DNA of 64,000 nucleotides from Myxococcota bacterium (GTDB taxonomy: Bacteria; Myxococcota_A; UBA9160; UBA6930), in contig OZ245015.1 in assembly GCA_965223705.1 (NCBI GenBank), forward strand, positions 1,088,001 to 1,152,000. Direction: 5' to 3'. Shown one piece after another: positions 22,248 to 46,451 of this stretch (its first letter is position 1; the number at the start of each line of letters is the position of its first letter). The notes below the pieces were generated by a model. The model had not been told where the DNA came from and ran no database searches. It saw only the letters and a list, made by a program, of their open reading frames with translations. A program made the position numbers and the translations under genes.

Positions 22248-22441
22248 TGACCCGGCTGCGACGGCTTGTCGCTCGCTGGCTCCGCAGAGCGGCATCCCCG
22301 CTGCGGGAAGAAGTCGAAGGCGCAGCCTACGCAGAGGATCTCGAGGAGTTCCTCGCCGCGGACGGCAAACCCACGCAAGGGGATGCGGCTTTTCGAGAGC
22401 GGCTTCGAGAACGGCTCTGGCGCGAGTACATCGAGAAGTAA
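22247..22441 (+). CDS. 64-aa hypothetical protein coupled to ECF copy 2 (candidate soluble anti-sigma factor)
   Basis: TAATG overlap; MTRLRRLVARW...DLEEFLAAD...FRERLRERLW. Confidence 0.55.
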   Translation: MTRLRRLVARWLRRAASPLREEVEGAAYAEDLEEFLAADGKPTQGDAAFRERLRERLWREYIEK

Positions 22442-22547
22442 CAGGCCGGGTTTCGCCGGCACGTCGAGAAGCAAGACGCCGGGTTTCGCCGAGGCACGTC
22501 GAGAAGCAAGACGCCGGGTTTCGCCGACGTACGTCGACAAGCAAGCC
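22428..22547. repeat. Tandem repeat, 33-35 bp unit, about 3.5 copies
   Basis: ACGTCGAGAAGCAAGACGCCGGGTTTCGCCG-type units start at 22428, 22461, 22496 and 22531 (partial). Confidence 0.9.
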
Positions 22548-22580
22548 ACCCCCGCCTATGGTCGCGCCGTGCCCCAAGCC

Positions 22581-23183
22581 ATGGCTCGAGAGCCGCAGGA
22601 CGACGCCGAGTTCGAGCTCCCGCGACGCGAGACGTTGCGATCGAGCGTCGTACGTGTTTTACATGAGGGGAGGACGCGAAACCCGGACGTCTTCCTCGTC
22701 GAGACGCGAAGCGGCCGCTGCGTCGTCAAAGATTTCTCACCGCGCGGCAGCTTCGTGCGCGGTGTGATCGGACCCTGGCTGATCGACCGCGAGATCCGCG
22801 CGTACCGCGCGTTGGCGAGTCACCCGTCGGTACCGCGCTTTCTGGGTCGCCTCGACCGGATGGCGTTCGTCGTCGAGTACCGGCCGGGCGAGCGCATCTC
22901 CCGGCGGCTGCGAGACACCGTTCCGGTCGATTTCATGACTCGCCTCGAACGCGCGATCGCCCTGATGCACTCCCTCGGCGTGGTGCACCTCGATCTACGC
23001 CACCGGAGCAACGTCCTGGTCGGCGGCGACGGTGCACCGATTCTCATCGACTTCGCTTCCGCGATCTGCGCGCGACCGGAAGGCTTGCGCGCACGCACCA
23101 TCCTCGCAGCATTGGCCTCGATCGACCGCTACGCCGTGGAAAAATGGCGCGATCGGCTGGCCCCGGAGAGCGCGACCGCCTAG
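22581..23183 (+). CDS. Small protein-kinase-like protein (RIO1/Kdo-kinase-like)
   Basis: VVKDF, REIRAY, HLDLRHRSNVLV catalytic loop, LIDFASA. Confidence 0.75.
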   Translation: MAREPQDDAEFELPRRETLRSSVVRVLHEGRTRNPDVFLVETRSGRCVVKDFSPRGSFVRGVIGPWLIDREIRAYRALASHPSVPRFLGRLDRMAFVVEYRPGERISRRLRDTVPVDFMTRLERAIALMHSLGVVHLDLRHRSNVLVGGDGAPILIDFASAICARPEGLRARTILAALASIDRYAVEKWRDRLAPESATA

Positions 23184-23749
23184 GAGCTCTCGACCTCGCG
23201 CGGAGCGAGACGTCCGATAAAGTGCCGAAATGTTTCGAGGGTGAGCCGCGCGTCGGCCAAAGCCCGGTGGGGAACCGATCCGTCGGCCAAGCCCGCGACC
23301 GTTGCGGATTGGCGCAGGGACAGCGATTTCACGTCGCGTCCGGCCACGAGCGACCAGCTGTAGAACAGCGTTGCGAGATCCAAGGTGTGGTAGTCGAACG
23401 GGGAGGGAATCGCCGTGTTCTTGTAGGCCAGCTCGAGGAACATGACGTCCATACGCACGTTCTGGCCCGCGGGAACAGTGGTGCGTCCCTTCGGCATCAG
23501 AGCGGCGAGTTCCGTGAGCGCTTGCTGCACCGGGACCGCTTCCGCTTCCCAGACCTTGGCGTCGTAGCCCGAAATCTTCGCGGCTTCGGCGCTGATGCGT
23601 TCGGGGCGGGCTCGGACCTTCCATTCCTGCTCGCCCAGCTCGACCAAGCGGTCGTCGGTCACGATCGCGGCGATTTCCGTGATGTCGTGCAGGTCCGGAT
23701 CGAGGCCGCCGAACTCGCAGTCGAGGAAGGCAAACGCGAGATCACCCAC
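23180..23749 (-). CDS. DEDDh 3'-5' exonuclease (oligoribonuclease/DnaQ-like)
   Basis: FLDCEFGGL, AGQNVRMD, TLDL, HRALAD. Confidence 0.85.
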   Translation of the reverse strand: MGDLAFAFLDCEFGGLDPDLHDITEIAAIVTDDRLVELGEQEWKVRARPERISAEAAKISGYDAKVWEAEAVPVQQALTELAALMPKGRTTVPAGQNVRMDVMFLELAYKNTAIPSPFDYHTLDLATLFYSWSLVAGRDVKSLSLRQSATVAGLADGSVPHRALADARLTLETFRHFIGRLAPREVESS

Positions 23750-23762
23750 AGCTGCTCCAGAA

Positions 23763-23857
23763 AGCCAAACGCAGGGTCATCCCCCCCCGGCAACCAGCCA
23801 AACGCAGGGTCAGCCCCCCCGGCAACTAGCCAAATGCAGGGTCAGCCCCCAGCAACT
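23763..23857. repeat. Tandem repeat, three units of 33, 32 and 30 bp with poly-C tracts, downstream of tRNA-Glu
   Basis: AGCCAAA(C/T)GCAGGGTCA(T/G)C8/C7/C5(G/A)GCAAC units at 23763, 23796 and 23828. Confidence 0.9.
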
Positions 23858-23869
23858 CCCCGCGCACGG

Positions 23870-23945
23870 TGGCGCTCCCAACGGGAGTCGAACCCGTGTT
23901 TCAGCCTTGAGAGGGCCGCGTCCTAGGCCACTAGACGATGGGAGC
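23870..23945 (-). tRNA. tRNA-Glu(CTC)
   Basis: Reverse complement GCTCCCATCGTCTAGTGGCCTAGGAC GCGGCC CTCTCAA GGCTG AAACACGGGTTCGACTCCCGTTGGGAGCGCCA folds as a cloverleaf with encoded CCA. Confidence 0.95.
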
Positions 23946-23966
23946 GCGGTCGTCACCGGACGGCGA

Positions 23967-23994
23967 ACCCTAGCCCCCGACGGGAGTGTGTCAA
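23967..23994 (-). promoter_or_regulatory. Putative sigma70 promoter of tRNA-Glu, divergent from pilA
   Basis: Minus strand reads TTGACA-16 nt-TAGGGT. Confidence 0.5.
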
Positions 23995-24017
23995 CACGCG
24001 CCCTCCCACGGGCCGAG

Positions 24018-24052
24018 TGACACGGAGCGTCCCCGACTGACGCGTTTGGTCA
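24018..24052. promoter_or_regulatory. Candidate enhancer (bEBP/PilR-type) sites upstream of the pilin sigma54 promoter
   Basis: TGAC-N7-GTCC at 24018 and TGAC-N7-GTCA at 24038, 20 bp apart and about 115-150 bp upstream of the -24 element. Confidence 0.45.
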
Positions 24053-24166
24053 CTTCCTTGGGGGGATTTCCCCAATTTCGGGCGCTCGCAGCGCGGTTCG
24101 CTTCCCCCAGGTGCGGGGGCCTTTTCCACGCGTCGTTGCCGGTGACTGGGGACACCTTTTTCAACT

Positions 24167-24182
24167 TGGCACGTGGGTTGCT
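24167..24182 (+). promoter_or_regulatory. Sigma54 (-24/-12) promoter of pilA
   Basis: TGGCACG-TGGG-TTGCT matches the TGGCACG-N4-TTGC consensus. Confidence 0.85.
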
Positions 24183-24263
24183 CTTGTGGTCGCCCAGCAA
24201 GTGAACCGAGGCCAGTCTCCCCCGAAACCGGAGCCGGCACTCAAACCTGGAGAAGCAATCGCT

Positions 24264-24863
24264 ATGAAGCGCATTCAATTGAAGAAGTCGGCCGGCTTCA
24301 CGCTCATCGAGCTGATGATCGTGGTCGCCATTATCGGCATCCTGGCCGCCATCGCTATCCCGAACTTTTTGACCTTCCAGCTCCGCTCGCGTGCTGGTGA
24401 GGGCAAGACGAACCTCGCCGCGATCCGAACGGCGCAGGAAGGCTTCGCGGCCGAGTTCGTGACGTACATCCCGAACGCCGCTTACCCGCGCGCCCAGACC
24501 CCGGCGGGTCTCGACAACGTCAAGCAGATCTGGGTGCCGACGGCCGCCGGTGCTGCCGGCTTCACGCAGGTCGGTTTCGCGCCCGAGGGCGACGTCTACT
24601 ACGCCTACAACGTGATTGGTCAGCCCGCCGGTTGTCCGGCGGCGAACACCCCGTGCCTCAACTACGTGGCCGAGGGTGCCTCGGACATTGACGACGACGG
24701 CACGGCGAACTGGTGGGGCTACGTGAAGCCCGACGTGAACGGCAATACGTTCGCGGGCACCACCTGCGCCGCGACCGGCACCTGGGATCCGGTTCAGCAG
24801 GCCCCGGCTCTGCTCGAAACGGTGGGCCCGTGCGGTCAGTTCGACGGTCAGAACATCTTCTAA
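24264..24863 (+). CDS. pilA: Type IVa major pilin (large, about 188 aa mature)
   Basis: MKRIQLKKSAG|FTLIELMIVVAIIGILAAIAIPNF; sigma54 promoter; followed by pilG/H/I-pilD-like genes. Confidence 0.88.
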   Translation: MKRIQLKKSAGFTLIELMIVVAIIGILAAIAIPNFLTFQLRSRAGEGKTNLAAIRTAQEGFAAEFVTYIPNAAYPRAQTPAGLDNVKQIWVPTAAGAAGFTQVGFAPEGDVYYAYNVIGQPAGCPAANTPCLNYVAEGASDIDDDGTANWWGYVKPDVNGNTFAGTTCAATGTWDPVQQAPALLETVGPCGQFDGQNIF

Positions 24864-24889
24864 GTTCGATCTGACGACTATCCGATGAG

Positions 24890-24921
24890 TCAGTGGCGGG
24901 AGGGCAGCCTCCCGCCACTGA
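24890..24921 (+). other. Perfect 14-bp hairpin between the two pilin genes (mRNA stabiliser or attenuator)
   Basis: TCAGTGGCGGGAGG-GCAG-CCTCCCGCCACTGA, with no U-tract. Confidence 0.7.
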
Positions 24922-24952
24922 TGGAACCCTCGCTCTCACAACGGACCCTGTT

Positions 24953-25573
24953 ATGACGCGACCCGGACGAAACAAAACCACAGCAGGCATGACGCTGATC
25001 GAGCTCATGATCGCCGTAGCCATCATCGGGATCCTCGCAGCGACGGCGGTGGCCGGTTGGCAGAACTTCCAGCTGCGTACCAAGATGTCCGAAGGGAAGA
25101 GCAACGTCTCCTCCATCCGAGCGATGCAGATCAGCTACGGATCGGAAGCCGGGGTCTTCGTCACTGCAGCGCCGTCGCCCGCGCTGGCGGGACAGCCCAA
25201 CAAGCAGCGCCAGGCCTGGCGGCAGGTGCGCCAGAATTTTTCATCGGTGGCCAACACCGGTTTCGATGTGATCGGATGGAAGCCCGAGGGCGCGAGCTTC
25301 TTCGATTACGATGTTGCCGCGAACTTCATCCCGGGAGCCGGACCGCGCTTTACGGCGGCTGCCTACGGCGATGCGGATGGCGACGGCTTCTTCTCGGTGA
25401 TGGTCTACGCCCACATCGATACCCAAGGGAACCCGGAACCCTGTGGGCTTTGTGGCCTTCTCGGTCTGCCTCCGGTCGCCTGGGACGTCATCAGCTGCGC
25501 CCCGACGTACGGCTCGACGACCCAGATGTCGACGAACCCGAACTGTGGCTTCGCGACCGCGGACGATTACTAA
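24953..25573 (+). CDS. Second type IV pilin (PilA paralog or minor pilin)
   Basis: TTAG|MTLIELMIAVAIIGILAA; shares NFQLR..EGK.N, G(F/W).PEG..(Y/F).Y and DxDxDG with pilA. Confidence 0.85.
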   Translation: MTRPGRNKTTAGMTLIELMIAVAIIGILAATAVAGWQNFQLRTKMSEGKSNVSSIRAMQISYGSEAGVFVTAAPSPALAGQPNKQRQAWRQVRQNFSSVANTGFDVIGWKPEGASFFDYDVAANFIPGAGPRFTAAAYGDADGDGFFSVMVYAHIDTQGNPEPCGLCGLLGLPPVAWDVISCAPTYGSTTQMSTNPNCGFATADDY

Positions 25574-25637
25574 ACCGAATCCCTGAAAACGCCGATGGTC
25601 TCCCACGTCCAAGAACGTCGGAGCCCCGTATTTCGAC

Positions 25638-26561
25638 ATGATCGTTGCAAGAATCCTGCTAGTGCTCGTCAGCTGTTTCGCCATGGCGGCTACGCATCAG
25701 GCGGTGAAACCCCCGACCCGGGCCGAGCAAGGCGAGCTGTTCGTTCCGCGCCCCCAGGTCGCACGCGCTTCGGCGCTGGGCTTCCACTCGGTCATCGCGG
25801 ATTACTACTGGCTGCGCGCCGTCCAGATCGTGGGAGGCGCCCTTCGCCCCGAAGCGGAGGGGCGCATTCTCGGCCAGTTGATCGACGTGGTAACGACCCT
25901 CGATCCCCACGTGAGTCACCCGTATCGCTTCGCGGCGGTGTGGCTGACCGGCTCGCGCGAAGACGTGCTCCAGGCGAATCGCCTGCTGGAGCGCTCGCTC
26001 GAACCGCATCCGGACGAGTGGCGGAACCGCTTCTACTTGGGTTTCAACCACTTCTACTACCTGGGTGAGGACGCCAAGGCCGCCGAAGCGATCGAAGCCG
26101 CCTCGCAGCTCCCCAAGGCGCCCGATTACCTGGGTCGCCTGGCCGCACGCCTCAAAGCGGGATCGGCAGGTCTCGACGTGTCCGAGGCGTGGCTGCGCCA
26201 GCTCGTTGAGCAAACCGAAGACGGCTACTTGCGCGCGGGCTACCTGCGCGCGATTGACGAAATCAATACCGAGCGACGGGCGCAGGTGCTCGACACCGCG
26301 CGGGAGCTCTACAAGCAACGTAACGGACGGGACATCGAAGCGGTCGAGGACTTGCTCGAGGGTCCGAATCCGGTCCTCTCCGCGTTGCCCGATCAAGTAC
26401 ACGACGCCGACTGGGTTCTCGACGAGCGGACCGGTCGGATCGTTTCGAGCTTTTACGGATATCGCTACGAGCCGCAGTTCATGGGCGCTGCCACGGGGCC
26501 GCTGTTTGCGAGCGAGTCGGAGCAGAAGGACACACAGGAAGACGGACGGCGGGATCAATGA
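25638..26561 (+). CDS. PilG-like TPR accessory protein of a pilus-associated ABC system
   Basis: LGFHSVIADYYWLRAVQ...VTTLDP; TPR-like helices; lies between the pilins and the ABC genes as in myxobacterial pilGHI. Confidence 0.65.
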   Translation: MIVARILLVLVSCFAMAATHQAVKPPTRAEQGELFVPRPQVARASALGFHSVIADYYWLRAVQIVGGALRPEAEGRILGQLIDVVTTLDPHVSHPYRFAAVWLTGSREDVLQANRLLERSLEPHPDEWRNRFYLGFNHFYYLGEDAKAAEAIEAASQLPKAPDYLGRLAARLKAGSAGLDVSEAWLRQLVEQTEDGYLRAGYLRAIDEINTERRAQVLDTARELYKQRNGRDIEAVEDLLEGPNPVLSALPDQVHDADWVLDERTGRIVSSFYGYRYEPQFMGAATGPLFASESEQKDTQEDGRRDQ

Positions 26562-27508
26562 CCGAAAACTCACATTCGCTCGTTGAGGTGAAAGACCTCG
26601 TCAAAGACTTTCGACCGGGGCTCGGAAAGGGCAAGAAGCGCGTCCTTCACGGCATCTCGTTCGAGGTGAACGACGGAGAGATCTTCGGATTCGTCGGGCC
26701 GAACGGCGCGGGCAAGACGACGACGCTGAAGATCCTCATGGGACTGATTCACGCGACGGAAGGTCAGGCGTCGATTCTCGGACACGACGTTTCCGAAAGC
26801 GCCTACCGTCAGCACATCGGTTTCTTGCCGGAGAACCCGTACTTCTACGACTACCTGACCGGGCGCGAGTTCCTGCGCTTCTACGCGAAGCTTGCCGCGA
26901 CAAGTGATCGCAAGCGTATCGACACGCTCCTCGAGCGCGTGGGCTTGGCGCACGCTGCAGACGCGCGCCTGCGGACGTACTCGAAGGGCATGTTGCAGCG
27001 AATCGGAATCGCCCAAGCGTTGGTACACGACCCGAAAGTGATCTTTCTCGACGAGCCGATGAGCGGACTCGATCCGATCGGTCGCAAAGAGATCCGCGAT
27101 CTCATCCTCTCGCTGAACCGCGAGGGGAAGACGATCTTCATGAACACGCACATCCTCTCGGACGTCGAGATGATCTGCGATCAGGTTGCCATCATCGTAA
27201 AAGGGCGCATCGAGTACCGCGGTCGCCTCGACGACTTCCTGACCGGTGAAGACCGGCAGACGGACGTGGTCCTCTCGAGCGTGGTTCCCGAGCTCGTGGA
27301 CCGCTTCCAAGAGGAATTCGGGTGCGAGATTTCGGGGCTCGGCGAGACCATCGAATTTCGCGTGGCCGAGAAGCACTTGAACGAGCTCCTCACGGCGGCG
27401 CTCGCTCGCGAAGTGACCGTGCATTCCGTCACGCCGCACCGCAAATCCCTGGAATCGCTCTTCCTATCGGCGGTGAACCGAGGAGAAACCGAGGAGGCGC
27501 CGTCGTGA
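26558..27508 (+). CDS. ABC transporter ATP-binding protein (myxobacterial PilH-like)
   Basis: [35 protein letters not shown]. Confidence 0.9.
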
Positions 27509-27575
27509 AGCCGACTGCGAACCGAGGAGGCGCCGTCGTGAGCCGACTGCGAAACGAGGAGGTGTCGTCGTGAGC
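27487..27575 (+). repeat. Triplicated RBS/GTGA gene junction (32-33 bp unit)
   Basis: AACCGAGGAGGCGCCGTCGTGA(A)GCCGACTGCG at 27487 and 27520, degenerate third copy at 27552. Confidence 0.9.
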
Positions 27576-28343
27576 GTGACCCGCATCGGCGCGATCGCAG
27601 GCAACACCCTGCGTGAAGCGCTCCGTCACAAAGTTCTCTACGTGCTGCTCGCCTTTGGCCTGGTGCTGATCTGCAGCGGCGCGCTCTTGTCGTCGCTCTC
27701 GTACGTCGAGCGCGAGCGCATCCTGCAGGACATCGGGCTCGCTTCCCTGCGCCTGTTCGGAGCGGCGATCGCGATCTTCGTCGGCGTCGGGCTGATCCAT
27801 CGCGAGGTGGATCGGCGAACGATCTTCACGATTCTCTCGAAGCCGGTGTCGCGGAGCGAGTTCCTGATCGGGAAATTCGCGGGCTTGACGGCAACCCTGT
27901 GGATGCAAGCGGGCATCATGGCTGCGGTGTTCGGCATCGTGTCGCTTCTGCTCGAGGCCCCGCTCGGTTGGGGACACCTGGCGGCCGTTCTCCTGGCCGC
28001 GCTCGAGTTTTCGGTCCTCGTGGCGGTCGCCACCTTGTTCTCGTCATTTACGACGCCGCTCTTGGCTTCGCTTTTCACGGCCGGCTTCTACTTCGTGGGC
28101 CACCTGACGCGCGATCTTCGCGAGCTGGGCATTGCGGCGAAATCTCCCGAGGCAGCGCGCATCACCGAGGTGATCTACACGATCGTCCCGGATCTGGAAC
28201 GCTTCAACGTGTCGACCCAAGCGGTGCACAACTTGCCGATTTCGGTCGAGCAGGTCGGCATTGCGGCAGTCCTGGCGTGTGTCTACTGCACCATGATGCT
28301 CGCCGTTGCTTCGATCGCGTTCGAGCGTCGCGACTTCCGCTAG
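27570..28343 (+). CDS. ABC-2 permease (myxobacterial PilI-like)
   Basis: IAGNTLREALR, REVDRRTIFTILSKPVSRSEFLIGKF, FERRDFR; about 6 TM helices. Confidence 0.85.
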   Translation: MSVTRIGAIAGNTLREALRHKVLYVLLAFGLVLICSGALLSSLSYVERERILQDIGLASLRLFGAAIAIFVGVGLIHREVDRRTIFTILSKPVSRSEFLIGKFAGLTATLWMQAGIMAAVFGIVSLLLEAPLGWGHLAAVLLAALEFSVLVAVATLFSSFTTPLLASLFTAGFYFVGHLTRDLRELGIAAKSPEAARITEVIYTIVPDLERFNVSTQAVHNLPISVEQVGIAAVLACVYCTMMLAVASIAFERRDFR

Positions 28344-28352
28344 CCTGCGCCC

Positions 28353-29237
28353 ATGTCGCATCTGGCGGGGGAGGACCCGGCGCTTCAGCTCGCTCTGTGG
28401 CTGGCTTCGCTGGCCTTCGTGTTCGGCTTGACCCTCGGATCCTTTCTCAACGTCGTGATCCATCGCTGGCCACGGGGTGAGTCCGTCGTGCACCCGCGGT
28501 CGCGTTGCCCCCACTGCGGTCATGCGATCGCCGCGTGGGAGAATATTCCGGTCGTCTCCTACCTCTTGTTGCGCGGACGCTGTCGCGGTTGCGGCGAACG
28601 CATCTCGCCTCGCTATCCACTGCTCGAGCTCGCGACAGGTCTGCTCTTCGCCGGAGTCACCTGGCGCTACGGTTTGTCGTTCATGACGCCGCTCTTCCTG
28701 GCGTTCGTCGCGGCGTTGCTGACCGCCGGTGCGATCGACTTCGACGAGCAGATCATTCCCGATGAGATCTCGCTCGGCGGCTTGGCGTTCGGACTCGCTG
28801 CGGTTCCCATTGCTCAAGCGCTCGACGGCGGATCGTGGGTCTTCGGGTTGCAGCGCGCGTTCTTCGGCGCGGCTCTCGGGAGCGGCTTGTTGTGGGCGGT
28901 CGGTTTTTTCCACGCCCGCTACTGCGCGGCCCGCGGACGCCGCTTCGACCACTGGCCCGAAGGGGACGATCCGTTTCCGACGCCGCGCGAGGCCGATTAT
29001 TGGCTCTGGTTTCCGGGGCTGGGTCTCGGCGACGTCAAGCTCCTCGCGATGATCGGCGCTTTCTTGGGCCCCGTCGGCGTCGTCTACACCATCCTGCTTT
29101 CCGCTGTCGCCGGCCTGGTCTTCGGCCTCGTTGCGGCGTGGATCACGAAATCGTGGGACACACCGTTTGGCTTCGGGCCCGCCATCGCCGGCGGCGCGAT
29201 TCTCTGCTTGCTACTCCCCGAGATCGCGCGCTTTTAG
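28353..29237 (+). CDS. pilD: Prepilin peptidase
   Basis: GSFLNVVIHR, SRCPHC, RGRCRGC, AIDFD, GLGDVKL, FGPAIA. Confidence 0.92.
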   Translation: MSHLAGEDPALQLALWLASLAFVFGLTLGSFLNVVIHRWPRGESVVHPRSRCPHCGHAIAAWENIPVVSYLLLRGRCRGCGERISPRYPLLELATGLLFAGVTWRYGLSFMTPLFLAFVAALLTAGAIDFDEQIIPDEISLGGLAFGLAAVPIAQALDGGSWVFGLQRAFFGAALGSGLLWAVGFFHARYCAARGRRFDHWPEGDDPFPTPREADYWLWFPGLGLGDVKLLAMIGAFLGPVGVVYTILLSAVAGLVFGLVAAWITKSWDTPFGFGPAIAGGAILCLLLPEIARF

Positions 29238-29264
29238 CCCCACGAGAAAGCCGCCGATAAGCCG

Positions 29265-30341
29265 GTGATGAAGTCTTCGGCCCCGCGCCACCGCTTTGTT
29301 CCGGCCCTCGAAGGTCTGCGGGGCGTCGCGGTCCTCCTCGTCGTCGCGTTTCACGCGGGGACTCCGTGGATGCCGGGCGGCTTTGTCGGCGTCGAAGTGT
29401 TCTTCGTGCTGAGCGGCTTTCTCATCACGACGATCTTGCTGCGCGAGATCGATGCCACGGGTGGGCTTTCGCTACTCCCGTTCTACCTTCGTCGCGCGTG
29501 GCGGCTACTGCCCGCCCTCGTGCTCTTGCTCGGCTGCATCCTCGCCCTTTGGCTCCTCCTGGGAGAATGGCAGGAGTTCGCGACGTCCGCCGAGGGAGCG
29601 GTAGCCGCGCTCTTTTACTTCACGAACTGGGCCGACCTCTTCGGTTGGCAGACGGGATTTTTCTCGCACACGTGGTCGCTCTCGATCGAAGAGCAGTTCT
29701 ATCTCGTTTGGCCTCTCGTGTTGCTCGCGATCGTCCGTCGCACGGGTCGGTACGCAATGTGGGCGGTCGCCGCGCTCGCGCTGGCACTCTGGGTGCGCAA
29801 CGCGCTCCTCGCGCCTCACGTCGATCCGATTGCGCTCTACCTGGGAACGTTCAGCCGCGCGCCGGCTCTCCTGGCAGGCGCCGTGTTGGGCATCGCCTAC
29901 CTGCGGTATCCCGCTGTCGTGGACCGCGGAGCCCGTGCTGCGGGCGGAGCCTCTGCCGGGCTCGCAGCGGCGGGGATCGGCCTCGCTTCACTGGTCGCCT
30001 CCCCCCAGCAACCATTGATGTACGTCGTCGGCTTCCCGCTCGTCGGTCTGGCATCCGTCGTCCTGATCGCGGCGTCGCTCGGCTCCGAAAGCACCGCACT
30101 TCACCGCGCGCTCGGCTCGTGGGCGCTCCGGTACGTCGGTCGCATTTCGTACGGGCTCTACCTCTGGCACTACCCGGTCTTTCTGCTGCTCAATCCCTCT
30201 CCGTGGTGGATCAAGCTCACACTCGGCACGGCGGTCTCGATGGCCATCGCGGCGCTCTCTTTTCACCACCTCGAACGTCCGCTCCTCGAGCGACACAACA
30301 AGCGCGACGATCGCGTTCACGGGGTGCCGGCACCCGCCTAG
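29265..30341 (+). CDS. Acyltransferase-3 (OafA-like) membrane O-acyltransferase without an SGNH domain
   Basis: LEGLRGVAV, GGFVGVEVFFVLSGFLIT, RRAWRLLP, HTWSLSIEEQFY, GRISYGLYLWH. Confidence 0.9.
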   Translation: MMKSSAPRHRFVPALEGLRGVAVLLVVAFHAGTPWMPGGFVGVEVFFVLSGFLITTILLREIDATGGLSLLPFYLRRAWRLLPALVLLLGCILALWLLLGEWQEFATSAEGAVAALFYFTNWADLFGWQTGFFSHTWSLSIEEQFYLVWPLVLLAIVRRTGRYAMWAVAALALALWVRNALLAPHVDPIALYLGTFSRAPALLAGAVLGIAYLRYPAVVDRGARAAGGASAGLAAAGIGLASLVASPQQPLMYVVGFPLVGLASVVLIAASLGSESTALHRALGSWALRYVGRISYGLYLWHYPVFLLLNPSPWWIKLTLGTAVSMAIAALSFHHLERPLLERHNKRDDRVHGVPAPA

Positions 30342-30365
30342 GCTCGGATGCAGTAGCGTCCCCGC

Positions 30366-31208: not shown

Positions 31209-31282
31209 TGGATCCCCGGGGAGGATTCGAACCTCCATTCGCAGGTTCAGAGCCTGCTGTCCTGCCGTTAGACGACCGGGGA
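31209..31282 (-). tRNA. tRNA-Gln(CTG)
   Basis: Reverse complement TCCCCGGTCGTCTAACGGCAGGACA GCAGG CTCTGAA CCTGC GAATGGAGGTTCGAATCCTCCCCGGGGATCCA. Confidence 0.95.
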
Positions 31283-31462
31283 CCAAGTAGTCACTGGTTT
31301 CGCTGTCTTACCCGAGGCCTTGGACTTCGACAAGTCATCCCGGCGAGAAGTACCGTCGCAGCCTGGTTCGTGCGCTGCGGCACCCCAGATGAACTGATAC
31401 GGTTTCCCCCCGGGCAGTTCCTGCGACTGCTCACACTTCTCTTCGACAGGACCGGTGTTCCG

Positions 31463-32226: not shown

Positions 32227-32229
32227 AGT

Positions 32230-33462: not shown

Positions 33463-33470
33463 GAGCCGCC

Positions 33471-36422: not shown

Positions 36423-36425
36423 AGC

Positions 36426-38935: not shown

Positions 38936-39549
38936 GCGCCGGGCTCATTCTCGGCGTGTCTTCGGATGCCGCGGAAATCGCCGGTGCCGAGCTGTTGATC
39001 GCTCCGTGGTGCGCGTCCGACCGTCCACCCCGGGGCGCGGCCGGTCGGGTCGATTGGCGGATGTGCGGGCTGGTTTCTCAACTCATCCGCGACGAACGAC
39101 TGACTGGCGAGCGCGACGAGAAGCTCCTCATCGCCACCCATGGACGATTGCGGGCGCCGCGGGTGCTCCTTCTCGGCATGGGCGACCGCACCGCGATCGA
39201 CCCGGAGCGGGCGACCGACGCCGGCATCTTGGGCCTGCGCAGCGCTATGGAGCTCGGTGTCTCCCAGATCGCCCTGTCGTCCGACGTTTTTGGCGGGCTG
39301 CCCGCGGATCGGATGCTTCCCAACCTCGTCCGCGCCTTGGCGCCCGTGGCGGCCGAAGCGTCGGATCCGCTCCATCTGGAATTTCTCGTGGCTCCAACCG
39401 AACGCAGCGCAGCGCGTGAGCGGATTGAGCGCGTCGTCACACGGGGGCTGCGGGAGTTGCCGATGCGTCTCGCCTCAGGGCAGACCGGTGGACGAACCGG
39501 AGACGTCCGACCCCGTGAAAAAGGGGACAAATCCCCCCGGGTCTCTTAA
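38932..39549 (+). CDS. Stand-alone peptidase M17 N-terminal-like domain protein
   Basis: DRPPRGAAGRVDWRMCGLVS...RVLLLGMG; no catalytic domain; GTGA overlap with nusB. Confidence 0.6.
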   Translation: MSAGLILGVSSDAAEIAGAELLIAPWCASDRPPRGAAGRVDWRMCGLVSQLIRDERLTGERDEKLLIATHGRLRAPRVLLLGMGDRTAIDPERATDAGILGLRSAMELGVSQIALSSDVFGGLPADRMLPNLVRALAPVAAEASDPLHLEFLVAPTERSAARERIERVVTRGLRELPMRLASGQTGGRTGDVRPREKGDKSPRVS

Positions 39550-39648
39550 GTCGTCGACCCACTGTCCCGATCTGGAGGAGATCGCAAAGCCTGGGGAGGG
39601 GTTGCGCAGCCCGGATGCGTCCTCGACCCAACCGCTCGGAGAGTCGCC

Positions 39649-41292
39649 ATGATCGCCGCGTGTCCGCGCTGCAGCGCCCGCTATCGCGTCCAACGTGAAC
39701 GCCTGACCGGTGACGGGGTTCGTCTCCGCTGCGCCCGATGTGAGGCCGTCTTCCGGGTTCGCGCGCCGCGCGGGGCCCCGCCCGAAGCCGCCGCTCCGCA
39801 ACGGCCGGCGCTCGCCCGTCATCGCCCGGCCGGGCCCGCAGCCGAGCGCGTCGCTCCCCGAGATGCGCCGACGCCCCAACCCGGAGCGGCCGGAAAGCCG
39901 CTGGTGCTTTTGGGCTTCGGTGCGAAGGACGGGCTCCACAACTGCATGCGGATGCTCGAGACGCGCTACCAGCCCGAACTGCTGCGCGACGGGGTGCAGC
40001 TTCTCCTCGAGATCTTTCGCCGCTCCCCCGCCTGGGTGGTGCTCGGCGACGGCCTCGCGCGGATGCACGCAGCCGAAGTCACCGAACTTCTGAAGCGAAG
40101 CGGCAAGACGGATGCTCCGCGTACGATTTGGGTCGGCCACCCGAGCGATGCGTTCGTCCCGGGATTCGCGCCCGACCACCAGGTCGACGACATCGATCTG
40201 CTGGACGGGTTGGGCTTGCTCCTCGGTGTGTCGCCCGCCGCTGCCGCGCCACCGGAGGTCGACCGCGCCACGTTCGGCGACCGCACTCCCGATTACTCGG
40301 AGGCCCCGGAGCCCCACGCGAAGGTTCCGCGACACGCCGTTCCCAGCCGGGATTGGAGATCCGAACCGGAACCGGCGGCTCGGGCAGCCGCGCCGCAGAG
40401 GGCGCCCGAAGACGATCCCCAAGACGCCCCGAGCTGGAAACCCGACGCGCGATCCCTCGAATCTTTCGAGGCAGAGCTCGGCGAACCCGCGCCCGCCCGC
40501 GCTCACGCTGAGCACAAGGTCCCGCCGGTGGTTCGCCCGCCGGCGCCGGCGCTCGAAGACTCCTTCTCGGCCGCGATCGGCGGCGGCGACCCGTCTCTCT
40601 CCGACGACGCTGCCGACAGCTTTTCCTTCGACGACCCGGACGGCGGCTTTGCGGGTTCGTTCGGTGCGGAGGATCGGGACCGCACGCCGGAGTTCTCGGG
40701 AACGTTCGGGCGACCCGAGGAAGATGATCCGTTCAATGCCACGCTTCCGGACGACGACGATTTCGCGCCGCTCCGGCCCTCGGACACGGGAACCGGCAGG
40801 GATCCCTTCGCCGCACCGTCGACGGACGCGGCGAACCCGTTCGCGGCGCCGCGAGCCGATGAAACGAATCCCTTCGCCGCGCCGTCCGCCCGCGGTGCGG
40901 AACCCGCCGATCCGTTCGGAGCGCCCGCGGCGCCATCCGCACCCGAGCCGGGCGGAAGTGACTTCTTCTCGCTGACGCCCGACGAGGCGCAAAAACCCCC
41001 GCCGCCGCCGGCGCCCGGAGCGGGTCCAGTGCCCGGTCTCGATCCGGTTCTCGCCGATATGCGCTCCGAGGCCGAGCGCTTCGCGCGCATCGTGGTCTCC
41101 GACATCGTCCTCTACAACGAGGCCAAGTTCGCAGCGGCGGTCGAGGGCGGAAAGGTGCTCGAGGTGATGCGCGCGGAACTCGAGGAAGGGCGCGATCTGT
41201 TTCGGGTCCGGGTCGATCCGCGGATCCGCGACGAGCGGGACTTCCTCGCCGATGAGATACTTCGCGTCGCCGCGACTCGGGCTGGCCGCTAA
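39649..41292 (+). CDS. MJ0042-type zinc-ribbon protein with degenerate receiver, low-complexity linker and helical C-terminal domain
   Basis: CPRCSARY...RCARCEAVF; C-terminal AERFARIVVSDIVLYN. Confidence 0.7.
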   Translation: MIAACPRCSARYRVQRERLTGDGVRLRCARCEAVFRVRAPRGAPPEAAAPQRPALARHRPAGPAAERVAPRDAPTPQPGAAGKPLVLLGFGAKDGLHNCMRMLETRYQPELLRDGVQLLLEIFRRSPAWVVLGDGLARMHAAEVTELLKRSGKTDAPRTIWVGHPSDAFVPGFAPDHQVDDIDLLDGLGLLLGVSPAAAAPPEVDRATFGDRTPDYSEAPEPHAKVPRHAVPSRDWRSEPEPAARAAAPQRAPEDDPQDAPSWKPDARSLESFEAELGEPAPARAHAEHKVPPVVRPPAPALEDSFSAAIGGGDPSLSDDAADSFSFDDPDGGFAGSFGAEDRDRTPEFSGTFGRPEEDDPFNATLPDDDDFAPLRPSDTGTGRDPFAAPSTDAANPFAAPRADETNPFAAPSARGAEPADPFGAPAAPSAPEPGGSDFFSLTPDEAQKPPPPPAPGAGPVPGLDPVLADMRSEAERFARIVVSDIVLYNEAKFAAAVEGGKVLEVMRAELEEGRDLFRVRVDPRIRDERDFLADEILRVAATRAGR

Positions 41293-41401
41293 CGCTGGCG
41301 TAGCCTGGGTCGTAGGCGAGCGGACGTCGTGCTGCGTCGCTTGGGTGCTCGCCCAGCTCACGACGGCCTTGCACTGGCGGCGCTGTGGTATACCTCGCCC
41401 G

Positions 41402-41959
41402 ATGAACGGGGTTTACCGCAGGAAGACGCCGCTCGCGTGCCGAGCTGTTCGCGCGGCCGCGCTCACCGTCGCCGCGACGCTCCTCGCGGGCTGTGGCTAC
41501 CAGTTTGTCCGCTACCAAGATGCCTTGGGCGACACCCGACGTGTCGCGATCGTCGGATTGGGAAACGAGACCTTCGAGCCCGGCGTCAATGCGCTCGTGA
41601 CCGAGGCCCTGACCCGCGAGTTTCACCGCCGAAAAGCACTGATCGTCGTCTCGGATCCGGAGAGTGCCGACCTCGTGATCGGCGGGGAAGTCGACCGGTT
41701 GCACACGGAGAGCTTGAGTTTCTCTTCGATCCAGTTCGCTCTCGAATACCAGCTGACCCTGCGCGTCGCGCTCGATATCACGCGGCGCGACGGCACGACG
41801 GTCCGGCTCGATCCCAATGCACTCCAGGAATCGGAACTCTATCTAGCGAGCTCCGATGTCGAAGTCGCACGACAAAACCGACAGGAAGCGCTCCGCCGGG
41901 TGGCGACGATGCTGGCAAGCCGCGTACACGACGCGTTGTTCGAGCGCATGACCCCCTGA
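41402..41959 (+). CDS. lptE: LPS assembly lipoprotein LptE
   Basis: Lipobox LAGCGY, NETFEPG, upstream of holA. Confidence 0.8.
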   Translation: MNGVYRRKTPLACRAVRAAALTVAATLLAGCGYQFVRYQDALGDTRRVAIVGLGNETFEPGVNALVTEALTREFHRRKALIVVSDPESADLVIGGEVDRLHTESLSFSSIQFALEYQLTLRVALDITRRDGTTVRLDPNALQESELYLASSDVEVARQNRQEALRRVATMLASRVHDALFERMTP

Positions 41960-41962
41960 CGG

Positions 41963-42949
41963 ATGGCGCTCACTCCGGAAGAACTCGCCGCTGAGCTCGA
42001 CGCGGGGAATCTCCGTCCGGCTTACCTCATCGCAGGGCCGCAGGCGCTCTTCCGAGACGACGCACGCGCCGCCCTCCGCGAGCACGTGCTCGGCCCGTCG
42101 CCCGACGCCTTCCGCCTCGACGTGCTCGAAGGCGCGAACACTGCACCCGGCGAACTTCTCGACGCCGTTCGTGCGCTTCCGGTCCTGGGTGGTCGCCGGC
42201 TCGTCGAATTGCGCGATCCCGACGCGCGGCGCGGAGACAAGCTCGGCGCGGCGATCGCCGAGGCGGTCGTCGAGCAGTGCGAGCTCGACGCCGAAGCGGG
42301 CTGCGTCTTTGTCGTCACCGGGGAGAAGATCGATCGGCGGTCCGCCTGGGCGCGCGAGTTCAAGGAGCCGGCGGGGACGGTCGCGTGCGAAACACCCAAA
42401 GGAAAACGCGGTCTCTCGGCGTTTGTCGGAGCCGAGGCGAAGCGCCGCGGGATTCGCCTCGGTTCGGGCGCGGCTTCGGCCCTCGTCGATCGCATCGGCC
42501 CGGATCTCCTCGCGCTGCGGTCCGAGCTCGAGAAGCTGGCGCTCTTCGTGTCCGAAGGTGAGAGCGTCACGGCGCGACTTGTCGTGGACGCCTCCGCTGA
42601 AGTCGCGGAGGAGCCCATCTGGGAGCTCACCGACGCCATCGGCAATGGACAGACGGGGGAGGCGTTGCGCCTGCTCGGGCGGATGCGGGGCGCCGGTGCG
42701 CCTGCGCCGGTCATCCTGGGATCCCTTGCGAGCCATTGGCGGAAACTGCTGCGGATCGAATCCGGTGCTCCGGTGTCCGGACACCCCTACGCCGTGAAGA
42801 AGCTTCGCGCCCAGGCCGAACGGTACCGGCCCGGGGAGCTTCAAGTGGGCTTGCGCGGTATCTGGGAGCTCGACGCGATTCTGAAAGGCGAGGGTGTGCT
42901 CGACCCCGAGGTGGCGCTCGAGCGGCTCGTTCTCAATCTGTCGCGATGA
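41963..42949 (+). CDS. holA: DNA polymerase III delta subunit
   Basis: PAYLIAG, LPVLGGRRLV, SELEKL, IWELTDAIG; lptE-holA-rpsT synteny. Confidence 0.88.
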   Translation: MALTPEELAAELDAGNLRPAYLIAGPQALFRDDARAALREHVLGPSPDAFRLDVLEGANTAPGELLDAVRALPVLGGRRLVELRDPDARRGDKLGAAIAEAVVEQCELDAEAGCVFVVTGEKIDRRSAWAREFKEPAGTVACETPKGKRGLSAFVGAEAKRRGIRLGSGAASALVDRIGPDLLALRSELEKLALFVSEGESVTARLVVDASAEVAEEPIWELTDAIGNGQTGEALRLLGRMRGAGAPAPVILGSLASHWRKLLRIESGAPVSGHPYAVKKLRAQAERYRPGELQVGLRGIWELDAILKGEGVLDPEVALERLVLNLSR

Positions 42950-42958
42950 GCGAGTGAG

Positions 42959-43225
42959 CTAGCTCGAAAGCTGGCGCACGGCTTTCGAGAGCCGAGAGAC
43001 ACTGCGGCTGGCGCGGGTCCGGGGAATGACGCCCTTGCTCGCAGCTTTTCGAAGCACGCGCTCGGCTTGCCGGAGGGCCGTCTGAGCTGCGGCGCTATCC
43101 CCGTCGGAAATCGCACTCCGAAGGGTTTTTACCGCGCTCCGCATGCGTGTTCGGACCTGTCGGTTTCGAAGTCGCCGCTTCTCGTCCTGGCGTGCGCGTT
43201 TCTCGGCGGATTTGTGGTTGGCCAC
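42959..43225 (-). CDS. rpsT: 30S ribosomal protein S20
   Basis: ANHKSAEKRARQ...KAASKGVI. Confidence 0.95.
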   Translation of the reverse strand: MANHKSAEKRARQDEKRRLRNRQVRTRMRSAVKTLRSAISDGDSAAAQTALRQAERVLRKAASKGVIPRTRASRSVSRLSKAVRQLSS

Positions 43226-43354
43226 GGGCTTTCCTCTGCCGCCGCCGAGGCGCTCGGCACCCGACGGGATTGCGCAGGGTAGAGGGCAAGTGCCCTGGGG
43301 TAAACCCCTTCTCAATATTTCAGCGGATGCGCGAAGCGGCCGATAGACCCGACA

Positions 43355-45295
43355 GTGATGGGCAACTTGAGCGCAACGGACACTCGATATCGCCGGATCC
43401 CGACGTGGGCGGAGACCCGATGCCACTGGATCCAAACCTGGGCCGCGATCGCCCTGCTGGCGCTGGCCGCCCCGGTGGCGGCGCAGGACACGAGCGGCAA
43501 ACCCGCCGGGCCTGCGGTCGTTTCCGAAGCGGCCGAGCCCGCCGGGCCTGCGGTCGTTTCCGAAGCGGCCGAGCCGGAAGAGGGTGAAGTCACCGTCCCC
43601 GAAGCCCAGGTGGAGACCGTCTCACCGAGCGTGCCCTCCGCCCGCGAAATTCTCACGGCCGAGTGGAACCGAACCGGCCGCTCGCTCTCGGGGCGCGTCG
43701 GTGCAACCCGGGAGCGGCTGGTCGAGCTCGGCATGGTGGGCTTCCCGCCGGCCGCGCGCGCGTTGATCCTCGACGAGACCCTGGGCGACGAGCTCACACG
43801 TGCCGAAGGCGCGGTGGCGCTGGCGCCGGGTCTCCCCGACTCCCACGCCTTCCACGCGCTGGCCCTCCTCGCCGACGGTTCGCCTTTGGCGTCGTTGCGC
43901 GCATGGGCTCGCAGCGCCGCCGCAGCCCGGGGTCACTTCGAGGGACGCGTTTGGTTGCAAGGGCACGGCTGGGCCTGGCTCGCGCTGGTCCTCGTATTGG
44001 GAGGAGCGCTCTACCTGCTCGTTGCCGGGTGTATCGCGTTGCCTCGGCTCGCCGTGCGCTTCGCGGGGCCCGAACGGAGTATTCCGCTCGCCGCCGGAGT
44101 CGCACTGCTCCTCATCCCGGTAGCCGTCCCAGGCGTTCTGGGCGTCGGAATCCTCGGGATGCTGCTGGTGCTGGGAGCCCTCGCGCTCGCAGCGGGATCC
44201 GGACTTACGCGTTTGTGTGTCGGCGCTGCGGGCGCCGCGTGCATCCTCGGCACGTACCCGGCGCTCGACGGCGCCGTTCGAAGTTTCGGGATGGTCGGCT
44301 CCGATCCGGTTGCGGAGGCGGCGTACAACATCGATTGGGAAACGGCGTCGGCGATCGATCTCGCCCGGGTGCGAACCGAGGATGTCGATCCGATGGCGCG
44401 CCGCGCGCTGGCGACATGGGATCGCAGGCGAGGGCGCCTGCAGAGTGCCCTCGACCGCTACGAAGGTCTGCTGGGCGCCCAAGCGGCCACCGAGATGTTG
44501 AACAACGCGGCGAACCTGCGGCTGTCTCTAGGAGACGCCGAGGCGGCCATCGGACTCTACGAGCGGGCTGCGAAGCAATCCCGCGACCCGGCGATCTTGA
44601 TCAACCTGGCGGAAGCGTACGGGCGCACGATTCGACTCGACGAACAGAATTTGGCGCTCGCCGAGGCGCAATTGATCGATGCGGCCGCCGTCGATGAGCT
44701 AACCCACGGCGACGAGGCCACGCGGCTTCGCGACATGGGGATCAGCGTCGAGGAGATGGGCCGTCGACTCGAACTCCGTCCGCGGGTCACCCACGCAGCA
44801 GCGCTGCGCGCGGGGATTGCGCCCGCAATCGCGGAAGAGCGTTGGGTGTTTGTCCTCGCGTTGTTCGGCGGTTTCGCGCTCGCGTCGATTGCGCTCGGTC
44901 AGTGGCTGCCCGACGGTCGCTCGGTCTCCGCATACCTCGACGGTAGAGCGGAGCAGACCCACGGACGGGGAGCCACAACGGACCCGTTTGAACGCCTGCG
45001 CCGCGCCGGCGAGAACCGGACGCGAAAGAAGCGTCTCCGCTGGGTCTCTCTCGGCCTCGGAAGCATCGTGCCCGGTGCGGCGGCACTCCTCGGCGCGAAA
45101 CCCCTGACCGGTTTCTTCGCGTTGTTCGGCTTCGCGGCCGCCGGCGCGTCGTGGCTTTTGCGCAATGGAATCTTTCCCGATCCGCTTGCGGCGGGCCTCC
45201 TGCTCCACGGACTCGCTGTGATGGCCGCGACTCTCGCGATGTGTGTCTTCGCCTGGTGCTCTCTTTCGTCGCTCTACGCGCTCTGGAGGGATTGA
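43355..45295 (+). CDS. Multi-pass membrane protein with TPR region; start uncertain
   Basis: Signal-like segment, several TM helices, TPR-like LNNAANL...AIGLYERA...INLAEAY. Confidence 0.65.
   Translation: MMGNLSATDTRYRRIPTWAETRCHWIQTWAAIALLALAAPVAAQDTSGKPAGPAVVSEAAEPAGPAVVSEAAEPEEGEVTVPEAQVETVSPSVPSAREILTAEWNRTGRSLSGRVGATRERLVELGMVGFPPAARALILDETLGDELTRAEGAVALAPGLPDSHAFHALALLADGSPLASLRAWARSAAAARGHFEGRVWLQGHGWAWLALVLVLGGALYLLVAGCIALPRLAVRFAGPERSIPLAAGVALLLIPVAVPGVLGVGILGMLLVLGALALAAGSGLTRLCVGAAGAACILGTYPALDGAVRSFGMVGSDPVAEAAYNIDWETASAIDLARVRTEDVDPMARRALATWDRRRGRLQSALDRYEGLLGAQAATEMLNNAANLRLSLGDAEAAIGLYERAAKQSRDPAILINLAEAYGRTIRLDEQNLALAEAQLIDAAAVDELTHGDEATRLRDMGISVEEMGRRLELRPRVTHAAALRAGIAPAIAEERWVFVLALFGGFALASIALGQWLPDGRSVSAYLDGRAEQTHGRGATTDPFERLRRAGENRTRKKRLRWVSLGLGSIVPGAAALLGAKPLTGFFALFGFAAAGASWLLRNGIFPDPLAAGLLLHGLAVMAATLAMCVFAWCSLSSLYALWRD
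43502..43573 (+). repeat. Perfect in-frame 36-bp tandem duplication (PAGPAVVSEAAE x2)
   Basis: CCCGCCGGGCCTGCGGTCGTTTCCGAAGCGGCCGAG at 43502 and 43538. Confidence 0.92.
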
Positions 45296-45300
45296 GGCTC

Positions 45301-46410
45301 GTGTCAGCACTTCTCGGAAATCTGCGCGACTTCGGCATGGGCGAAGTCTTTCAGCTGATCGGTCAGCAGCGAAAGACCGGCGTGCTCCGGGCGGAAGGCC
45401 CCGACGGTCGCATCGACGTGATGTTCGACGGCGGTCACGTGGTCTCCGCGACCTACGCGGGCCTGCACCCGGGGGCGGCGCTCGGCGACATGTTGGTGCG
45501 CCTCGGGATGATGACTCCTGAACGCCTGACCGACGTCGAGCGGGCGCGGGCTTCGTCGACGTCTGAGAGCTTCGAGCGCTTGCTGTCGCGGATGGCAGAA
45601 ATTCCGATGGACGCCATCGAAGAAGTGAAGGATGTCGTCACACAGGAGGCGCTGTTCGATCTCCTCCGCTGGAGCTACGGATCGTTCGAGTTCAGCGCTC
45701 ACCCCGTCACCCATACGAAGCGTCAACAAGATTTGCTCCCTGCAGAGCAGATCTTGATGGACGGACTGCGCATGGTGGATGAGTGGCAGAGCTTCCCGCC
45801 GGAGGTGCGCGACGAGCAGACGGTGTTCGCGAAAGCGGAGTCCTTCGACGCGTACCGCGCCGCGTTCCCCAGCGAGTCGATCGACTGGGTGACCGCGGCC
45901 GAGCGGCTCTACTTGTTGATCGATGGACGTCTGCCGGTCCGTCGCGTCGTGGATCTGTCCCGACTCGGAACCTTCGAGGGCTGCCGCATCTTGGCGGGTC
46001 TCGTCACGTGCGGCGCGGTCGAACCCCAGGATGAAAGTCGCGGCGGCCTCGCGCTCCGCGGGCTCGACGCGGTTCACTCCGGAGCCTTTCGCTGGCTCGG
46101 CGTCGGCGCCATGGCCCTGCTCCTGGTGATGGCGTTTTGGGTGACTTCGCCGCGACTTCCGGACCCGCCCGACGGCGTCATTCCGTTGCGGACCCACCTC
46201 ATGACGTCGCTTGCGGCTCGCTTCGACACGTTGCGGGCGCGCCGACTCGCCGACGCCGCGGCCCTACTCGAGCCCGGGCGAAGCCTTCACGCGAGCGACA
46301 TCAGCCGACTCGCGCCCGCCGACCGAGAGCCCTTGTGGGGCGCCCCAGGTGCTCCCTACTATCATTCGGGGGACGATGGCGTCATCGTCGTCCTGGCACC
46401 GGAGCACTGA
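45301..46410 (+). CDS. DUF4388 domain membrane-anchored protein
   Basis: LLGNLRDFGMGEVFQLIGQQRKTGVL, LGDMLVRLG, ILMDGLRMVDEW. Confidence 0.8.
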   Translation: MSALLGNLRDFGMGEVFQLIGQQRKTGVLRAEGPDGRIDVMFDGGHVVSATYAGLHPGAALGDMLVRLGMMTPERLTDVERARASSTSESFERLLSRMAEIPMDAIEEVKDVVTQEALFDLLRWSYGSFEFSAHPVTHTKRQQDLLPAEQILMDGLRMVDEWQSFPPEVRDEQTVFAKAESFDAYRAAFPSESIDWVTAAERLYLLIDGRLPVRRVVDLSRLGTFEGCRILAGLVTCGAVEPQDESRGGLALRGLDAVHSGAFRWLGVGAMALLLVMAFWVTSPRLPDPPDGVIPLRTHLMTSLAARFDTLRARRLADAAALLEPGRSLHASDISRLAPADREPLWGAPGAPYYHSGDDGVIVVLAPEH

Positions 46411-46451
46411 CGCTCCGCTAAGCCGCGGCACCGGAGCACTGACGCTCCGCT
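46395..46451 (+). repeat. 25-bp direct repeat (32-bp period) duplicating the DUF4388 gene end
   Basis: GGCACCGGAGCACTGACGCTCCGCT at 46395 and 46427. Confidence 0.92.

Follow-up and report, generated by a model that had tools for sequence, protein, structure and literature searches.

The stretch considered here (hereafter the window) comprises 64 kb of the genome of a Myxococcota bacterium (C1:1088001-1152000) and contains several short tandem arrays, which belong to a genome-wide class of about 60 duplications that are unrelated to each other in sequence and have a unit of 32-36 bases. The length of these duplications is fixed and is independent of sequence, hairpins and motifs. This description, extended by a filter through which copies are kept where selection tolerates them and by a turnover of whole units, is held with high confidence. 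The whole account, in which each duplication arises from a break staggered by ~34 bases that is filled in and joined by Ku/LigD and is then selectively retained, is put forward tentatively and with somewhat less than even confidence, the difference being due to the Ku/LigD step.

A genome-wide class of duplications with fixed length

The genome (4.56 Mb in the two contigs C1 and C2, 64.7% GC, 95% complete) was scanned as a whole for ungapped repeats at lags of 10-120, which revealed 102 arrays on C1 and none on C2. A period of 30-38 is found for 66 of them, corresponding to a density of 14.5 per Mb, and a period of 32-36 for 59. Exact runs of at least 18 bases count 20 at lag 33, 5 each at lags 32, 34 and 35, 9 at lag 36 and 4 at lag 30, as compared to 0-2 at each of the lags 16-29, 31 and 37-60; at the lags 32, 34 and 35, segments number 12, 9 and 8, as compared to 0-4 at every other lag between 14 and 61 that is not divisible by three. 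The shared period, described in the first-pass annotation for five arrays of the window, is hence a property of the genome, with a peak near 30-36 bases that lies far beyond chance. The window is the richest 64-kb bin genome-wide (6 arrays of period 30-38, genome mean 0.93). A peak at period 21 reported by Tandem Repeats Finder (TRF) was dismissed, being low-scoring and absent among the exact runs.

Gene boundaries were taken from a self-trained model (4,333 genes). The 25 arrays of the 30-38 class located inside genes have periods of 33 (18 arrays), 36 (6) and 30 (1), and 24 of all 52 in-gene arrays are at 33 or 36. Outside genes, 35 of 50 arrays are at 32-36, the counts for 32, 33, 34, 35 and 36 being 8, 8, 6, 7 and 6. 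From this flat spectrum outside genes and the triplet-only periods inside it follows that the ruler measures ~34 +/- 2 bases and that the mode at 33 reflects the reading frame.

That the unit sequences are unrelated, as had been claimed for the window, holds for all 66 units: their best-partner alignment score is 20.7, with 20.3-21.5 being obtained for random windows, and none of the 66 shares a 20-mer with any other place in the genome. In a search for a motif common to the units, the top candidate did not pass beyond the margin of the null range once matched controls were used, and a CCGNCG nuclease motif that had reached p 1e-9 in a first test was rejected, because unequal amounts of sequence had been compared and the signal was gone with matched controls. 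The arrays are distributed over the replichores without polarity (34 and 32). Judged by the boundaries of the lag scan, 3 of the 66 arrays reach four full units, and 22 have at least 2.5 copies. Nested events occurred at C1:385040-385138, a convergent CTAG junction where a 33-base array is overlapped by a perfect duplication of 23 bases.

The first-pass annotation had suggested a hairpin-directed duplication, possibly carried out by a RAYT/HUH or Cas1-like enzyme encoded elsewhere in the genome. The inverted repeats quoted for the units of the window exist letter for letter, yet they do not exceed what chance provides in a genome of 65% GC. The 66 units fold at -5.60 kcal/mol on average, and the three sets of matched controls (shuffled sequence, near-stop DNA and GC-matched genomic DNA) at -5.32 to -5.42 (p 0.28-0.51). 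The mean length of the longest perfect stem is likewise similar, with 4.02 in the units and 3.99-4.03 in the controls, which refutes hairpins as the general cause. Solely the 46395 unit stands clearly above its controls among the units of the window (6-bp stem, -9.8 versus about -5). Furthermore, neither Y1_Tnp (Y1 transposase) nor Cas1 gave a match in this 95%-complete genome, cas1 being present in 4 of 41 genomes surveyed. A hairpin-directed origin is considered highly improbable. As to other enzymes, a single weak reverse transcriptase match (C1:3636337-3637284, E 7.5e-15) lies in an apparently mobile region, and no reverse transcriptase was found in two relatives that carry arrays.

It might be argued that the arrays are artefacts of sequencing or assembly, resulting, e.g., from a 33-mer assembly word, since the mode is 33. 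Read data holding the region were available from four public runs (X1-X4), all of which stem from one study and two samples and are possibly the assembly's own source. The copies are present in contigs that were assembled separately: the array at 27487 is spanned without change in X4 and that at 46395 in X2 and X3, while at 43502 a contig of X4 has the copies together with substitutions of its own at positions 43516 and 43561, refuting an artefact for the three spanned arrays. An X1 contig (depth 4.4) lacks exactly 27487-27519, i.e., one 33-base unit; the two copies concerned share no exact match longer than 22 bases, which would not suffice for them to collapse at 31-letter words. Given also that periods of 32, 34, 35 and 36 are common, that the copies differ by 63 transitions and 43 transversions and that the periods follow the reading frame, the probability of an artefact is practically negligible. 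The arrays are therefore genuine, with a variable number of copies in at least one of them.

Stop codons, overlapping genes and the reading frame

A stop codon lies within 28 of the 66 arrays, where random placement predicts 4.4 (maximum 12 in 2,000 trials), bearing out the enrichment at stop codons for which three arrays of the window had given the first indication. Of the 41 arrays outside genes, 28 hold a stop, where 43% would be expected to do so, and one holds solely a start, where the expectation is 28%; 11 of the 41 are located at convergent junctions, which make up 16% of all junctions. This bias is explained more simply by selection on where duplications survive than by targeting. Many arrays occupy junctions at which the genes formerly overlapped, either co-directionally (ATGA, GTGA or TGATG) or with convergent overlapping stops, and in arrays derived from such overlaps the stop of the upstream gene resides in the first copy and the start of the downstream gene in the last. 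The junction between an ABC ATPase and a permease gene at 27487 documents the transition: a 4-base overlap, taken as the ancestral state, is present at 36 of 39 related loci (which are not independent of each other, the own locus and three duplicates being excluded), and here it is triplicated. The proposed remodelling of gene junctions is thereby substantiated.

The 14 arrays born on co-directional overlaps have a period of 2 mod 3 in 10 cases, 0 in 4 and 1 in none, while the remaining 27 non-coding arrays are split, in the same order, into 7, 12 and 8 (Fisher test: excess of 2 mod 3, p 0.008; absence of 1 mod 3, p 0.035). Among relatives, all three overlap arrays passing a strict filter are 2 mod 3. 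With a period of 2 mod 3, a start in one copy ends on the stop of the next copy; in 10 of the 14 overlap arrays a complete chain of mini open reading frames (mini-ORFs) ends on the start of the downstream gene, in 3 this gene is lengthened in frame, and in 1 neither is the case. The predicted chains have 11-12 codons per unit and are unbroken in all 10 arrays with a period of 2 mod 3. As the geometry of the chain follows from the period, the period bias alone counts as independent evidence. The predicted mini-ORFs would keep ribosomes passing from gene to gene, and judging from its sequence the shorter X1 allele of the 27487 junction would also stay coupled.

These patterns suggest a filter in which copies would be kept only where selection tolerates them: in genes solely with periods of 30, 33 and 36, and outside genes at 3' ends and at former stop/start overlaps. 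On co-directional overlaps, a period of 2 or 0 mod 3 would be tolerated, as the copied start then opens a mini-ORF or extends the downstream gene in frame. The arrays may thus be regarded as natural experiments on translational coupling and on the separation of overlapping genes.

Junctions, fresh copies and turnover

Where no degenerate extra copy is present (52 arrays), the incomplete final unit comprises 0 to 97% of the period and is spread almost evenly over this range. A pattern of a duplicated part, an unmatched part and a further duplicated part was seen in 31 arrays. The unmatched segment was not identified as an inverted or displaced local copy, as over the 31 arrays such matches did not surpass those obtained at random (p 0.67 for inverted and 0.24 for direct copies), which likewise speaks against a hairpin-directed process. 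Wholly foreign filler was also rejected, since the segment is 45% identical to the native flank as compared to 35% by chance (26 arrays; reached in 0 of 2000 simulations), and elsewhere in the genome matches of only 12-14 bases were found. The unmatched segments are, judged from these identities, at least partly diverged native DNA. At C1:3828334-3828425, seven bases of the unit are exactly reverse-complementary to the sequence at the corresponding place behind the final copy, without there being a general pattern of this kind.

We read such arrays as old and as patchily homogenised by gain and loss of units. In this turnover, slippage would add or remove whole units, giving rise to arrays of 3-5 copies and to patchy divergence; the unit-number variant at 27487 is a case in point. 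As a consequence, overhangs of 5-11 bases, as found for 10 of the 21 clean arrays with an overhang below 12 bases, are no proof of microhomology at birth.

Perfect duplications were taken as fresh copies. With respect to periods of 12-120, 21 of 35 perfect duplications are at 30-38, and 12 of these 21 have clean flanks, the overhang being 0-2 bases in 5, 5-10 in 5 and 24-26 in 2 (one of the five short-overhang arrays, C1:725530, belongs to a longer imperfect array). The concentration of perfect duplications at this length together with the short overhangs argues for a ruler acting at birth and for no strict need of microhomology.

Occurrence in relatives

The suggestion that the class is lineage-specific is only partly right: in distant bacteria one array was found in 1,164 kb (78 loci) as compared to 14.5 per Mb here, but 5 of 11 sampled relatives carry arrays with periods of 30-38, their density being about 10 per Mb. 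The search revealed no close relative by which single events could be polarised, and in metagenomes the ABC ATPase is matched with at most 68% protein identity. In the DNA sampled from the 11 relatives, five genomes with a Ku match contain 16 arrays of period 30-38 in 1,622 kb, while the six in which Ku gave no match contain none in 852 kb (binomial p 0.001, which is overstated as kin are not independent). In the relative G032, which has no Ku match and carries six arrays of 18-24 bases in 60 kb, the same ABC junction with its GTGA overlap was triplicated independently (locus L010), using a 23-base unit.

Several further observations were made in this set. A 20-kb metagenome contig of a relative (L033) carries three arrays with periods of 34, 35 and 36, a density like that of the window. 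In G031, of which 600 kb were sampled (L132-L141, L162-L181), two size classes coexist, with 11 arrays at 18-23 (eight of them at 21) and 5 at 30-38. A genome listed as belonging to the same genus (G001, L142-L161) has 47.5% GC and 2.3 Mb, gave no Ku match and showed no arrays in 152 kb. Finally, G018 and a metagenome contig (L021, L214, L215, L220) carry a dispersed REP-like repeat whose tandem pairs measure 29-45 bases, which is a different phenomenon from the locus-private arrays.

Origin of the duplications

According to the reading preferred here, a double-strand break with nicks ~34 bases apart would be filled in and rejoined by Ku/LigD, thereby duplicating the sequence between the nicks. 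Speaking for it are the fresh copies with overhangs of 0-2 bases, such as blunt joining would leave, and the Ku association seen among the relatives. For mouse cells, the available text of PMC8355091 describes that Ku80-dependent fill-in of breaks with overhangs yields small tandem duplications. The genome encodes both components that such duplication by non-homologous end joining would require, with Ku (C1:1235027) and the LigD primase-polymerase domain (C1:1232485) lying side by side in open frames. A wider proposal, in which Ku/LigD acting on breaks staggered by a ~34-base protein footprint makes the repeats of the order, seeds private MIRU-like relays and separates overlapping genes with coupling kept, is regarded as rather unlikely.

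A number of points weigh against this reading. A nuclease producing a stagger of 34 bases was not identified, the frame test comprises a small number of arrays (14 on overlaps), and the gene boundaries rest on the self-trained model with no curated annotation behind them. The Ku association is post hoc, having been noticed after the data were seen; it contrasts five Ku-positive genera with four; three of the six Ku-negative genomes are of one genus, and one of the six (G025) is 68% complete. As the Ku-positive DNA comes mostly from near-complete assemblies, breakage at repeats in fragmented ones may bias the contrast, and 2 of the 16 arrays (those of G018) look like a dispersed repeat family. 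Moreover, 24 distant Ku-positive genomes show no such array in 459 kb, meaning that Ku is not sufficient. Finally, blunt joining is expected to leave 91% of overhangs at 0-2 bases and 2.6% at 5-10, yet 5 of the 12 clean perfect arrays fall into the latter range, which fits microhomology-guided copying.

The last point leads to the alternative that ranks close behind Ku/LigD joining and is considered possible, albeit doubtful, namely a microhomology-mediated duplication from lagging-strand 5' flaps or by slippage of the nascent strand, its length being set by the footprint of a protein such as SSB. SSB possesses a binding mode of roughly 35 nucleotides, and copying of this kind would not require a nuclease motif; the 5-11-base overhangs of the clean arrays given above would be in line with it. 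Microhomology-mediated tandem duplication (MTD) is reported to occur across bacteria and to rise upon loss of the yeast flap nuclease Rad27 (PMC13167724, available text), though no fixed-length peak is described in that part of the report. The almost even spread of overhangs over the unit length and the several fresh arrays overhanging by 0-2 bases speak against it, as does the possibility that the 5-11 class stems from turnover. The same is true for the lack of leading/lagging polarity in the diverged junction segments of 26 arrays and for the state of the genes concerned: PolA is an open frame of 885 codons, a second 5'-3' exonuclease is present, and SSB is single, ordinary-looking and in an open frame. 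The MutS frame is also open. The second exonuclease, likewise in an open frame, is a stand-alone protein of 300 residues (C1:478386-479288), and a second match of its family is absent in the relative G019.

Alternatively, there may be no ruler at birth, all lengths arising and those of 32-36 bases being kept or expanded on account of protein spacing or of the length of the mini-ORF relay. Subirana and Messeguer, in the available text of PMC8161180, prefer selection on unit size for their repeats, e.g., by a DNA-polymerising protein, and the expansion of 22 of the 66 arrays noted above would agree with this. Contrary to this expectation, the length is no different within genes or at the ends of convergent genes, which lack initiation, two-copy perfect duplications are already concentrated at 30-38, a 23-base unit serves to relay the same junction in G032, and the units have no motif in common, which renders a purely selective origin unlikely. 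Slightly less likely still is a nuclease cutting twice (type IIB, MspJI-like, Cas1-Cas2 or, as in Spo11 double cuts, an adjacent pair of topoisomerase VI), by which a piece of 32-36 bases would be freed or staggered and re-ligated in tandem. The fragments cut by enzymes of these types are near 33-36 bases, topoisomerase VI subunit A is encoded in the genome, and the share of convergent junctions among the non-coding arrays would suit such cuts. The units nevertheless lack a shared bipartite motif, which disfavours motif-guided enzymes, no cas1 was found in the genome, and a helical ladder is not seen, the lag spectra showing no step at 43-44 bases. As 36 of 41 genomes possess topoisomerase VI, those lacking the peak among them, it was rejected as a discriminating factor. 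For the Ku/LigD step, a comparison of Ku-positive and Ku-negative genomes within one genus would be a cheap test, which the present class makes possible.

Relation to known repeats

Tandem repeats of constant length and variable sequence are a published enigma, usually taken as the result of selection on unit size. For Bacillus and other bacteria, the available text of PMC8161180 reports such repeats with units of 20-21 and 52 bases, their cause being unexplained, and the arrays described here are a new size variant of them. Shared features are one dominant unit length per genome (59 of 102 arrays here at 32-36) with many arrays, the lack of sequence conservation between arrays and a patchy occurrence across relatives. 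In contrast, the unit measures 32-36 bases here, arrays of 20-24 bases occurring in the relatives G031 and G032, and the published repeats have at least four units, related array families and short motifs, whereas the present arrays are mostly of 2-4 units and locus-private, and no motif was found in them. Due to the four-unit minimum, most arrays of the present kind would have been missed in that work. The genome catches such repeats at birth, with two copies and in some cases blunt joins, and does so on overlaps, within genes and at the ends of convergent genes alike, which points to a mutational ruler.

The arrays at overlaps resemble MIRUs as presented in the available text of PMC12548453, which lie between co-directional genes and carry a short ORF joined by a 4-base overlap to the downstream gene, a likeness that on the present side is one of sequence only. 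MIRUs, however, form a repeated and apparently mobile family inserting at start codons, whereas the units here copy the local junction, are mutually unrelated (none of the 66 recurs) and also occur inside genes and at convergent ends. With MTD, as far as PMC13167724 was available, the arrays share the head-to-tail duplication of single-copy DNA, the depletion from coding DNA and the capacity to expand, but MTD needs microhomology arms and is given no fixed length there, while the arrays described here have a sharply fixed length and, in several fresh cases, apparently no arms. The Ku80-dependent duplications of PMC8355091 (available text) correspond in the proposed chemistry, i.e., nearby nicks on opposite strands, fill-in and end joining; they were obtained in mammalian cells with engineered nicks and involve Pol alpha-primase/CST, while bacterial Ku/LigD and a natural fixed stagger are proposed here. 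Unlike REP/BIME elements with their RAYT, the arrays show no conserved palindromic family, and no Y1 transposase gene was found in this genome. They also differ from CRISPR/Cas1 scars, as cas1 was not found and the junction segments resemble the native flanks.

In a literature that consisted mostly of main texts open without subscription, neither a 32-36-base class nor duplication of overlap junctions nor Ku/LigD as their maker was found, and the same body of papers gave no Ku80-type duplication for bacterial Ku/LigD and no fixed natural stagger. The available parts of PMC6749651 and PMC6054270 contain nothing on units of 32-36 bases.

Arrays of the window

All five arrays named in the first-pass annotation are present at their positions, four being reported by TRF and that at 46395, which is below the TRF threshold and visible in the sequence, being recovered by the lag scan. 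Two period-33 arrays (13239-13305 and 40802-40886) had been overlooked, the latter of which may be an old member of the class or a protein repeat (Table 1).

Table 1. Tandem arrays and the predicted mini-ORF of the window (window coordinates).
Feature	Position	Strand	Description
In-frame period-33 duplication	13239..13305	+	88% identical; inside ORF 12547-13446
Tandem array	22428..22545	+	Period 35 (first unit 33), 3.3 copies; TRF span 22431-22545
Tandem array	23763..23850	.	TRF period 32, 2.7 copies; intergenic
Triplicated stop/start junction	27487..27575	+	Units 33 and 32; TRF period 32, 2.8 copies
Predicted mini-ORF	27505..27573	+	22 codons over two units; from GTGA overlap (ATPase stop) to GTGA overlap (permease start)
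Degenerate period-33 array	40802..40886	+	71% identical; inside ORF 39904-41292
Perfect in-frame duplication	43502..43575	+	PAGPAVVSEAAE x2; TRF period 36, 2.1 copies; near N-terminus of ORF 43358-45295
Duplication	46395..46451	+	Period 32, exact 25-base repeat, 1.8 copies; spans TGA 46408-46410 of DUF4388 gene

The stop codons said to be covered by three of the arrays were all located, the TGA in the 46395 array being given in Table 1. At 27487 the TGA of the ABC ATPase gene (27506-27508) lies in the first copy, and GGAGG together with the GTG of the permease gene (27570) in the last; an additional 11-base duplication (27476-27496) is located immediately before this array, within the 3' end of the ATPase gene. 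In the 22428 array, the TAA 22439-22441 is found in the first copy only, later copies having CAA at that spot, and the read contigs break inside this array, at 22487/22498, in all four runs. A weak ORF of 64 codons (22247-22441) without Pfam match, located directly behind an ECF sigma factor gene, ends on that TAA and is possibly the remnant of an anti-sigma factor.

The duplication at 43502 overhangs by only 2 bases, from which it follows that microhomology was not needed. The 23763 array is flanked by tRNA-Glu (23870-23945, minus strand) and by an exonuclease gene starting at 23749 (minus strand). The 46395 duplication sits just upstream of phoH (GTG 46461), the product of which has its best named relatives in metagenome-assembled genomes of a member of the Deltaproteobacteria (71%) and of the Myxococcota (66%).

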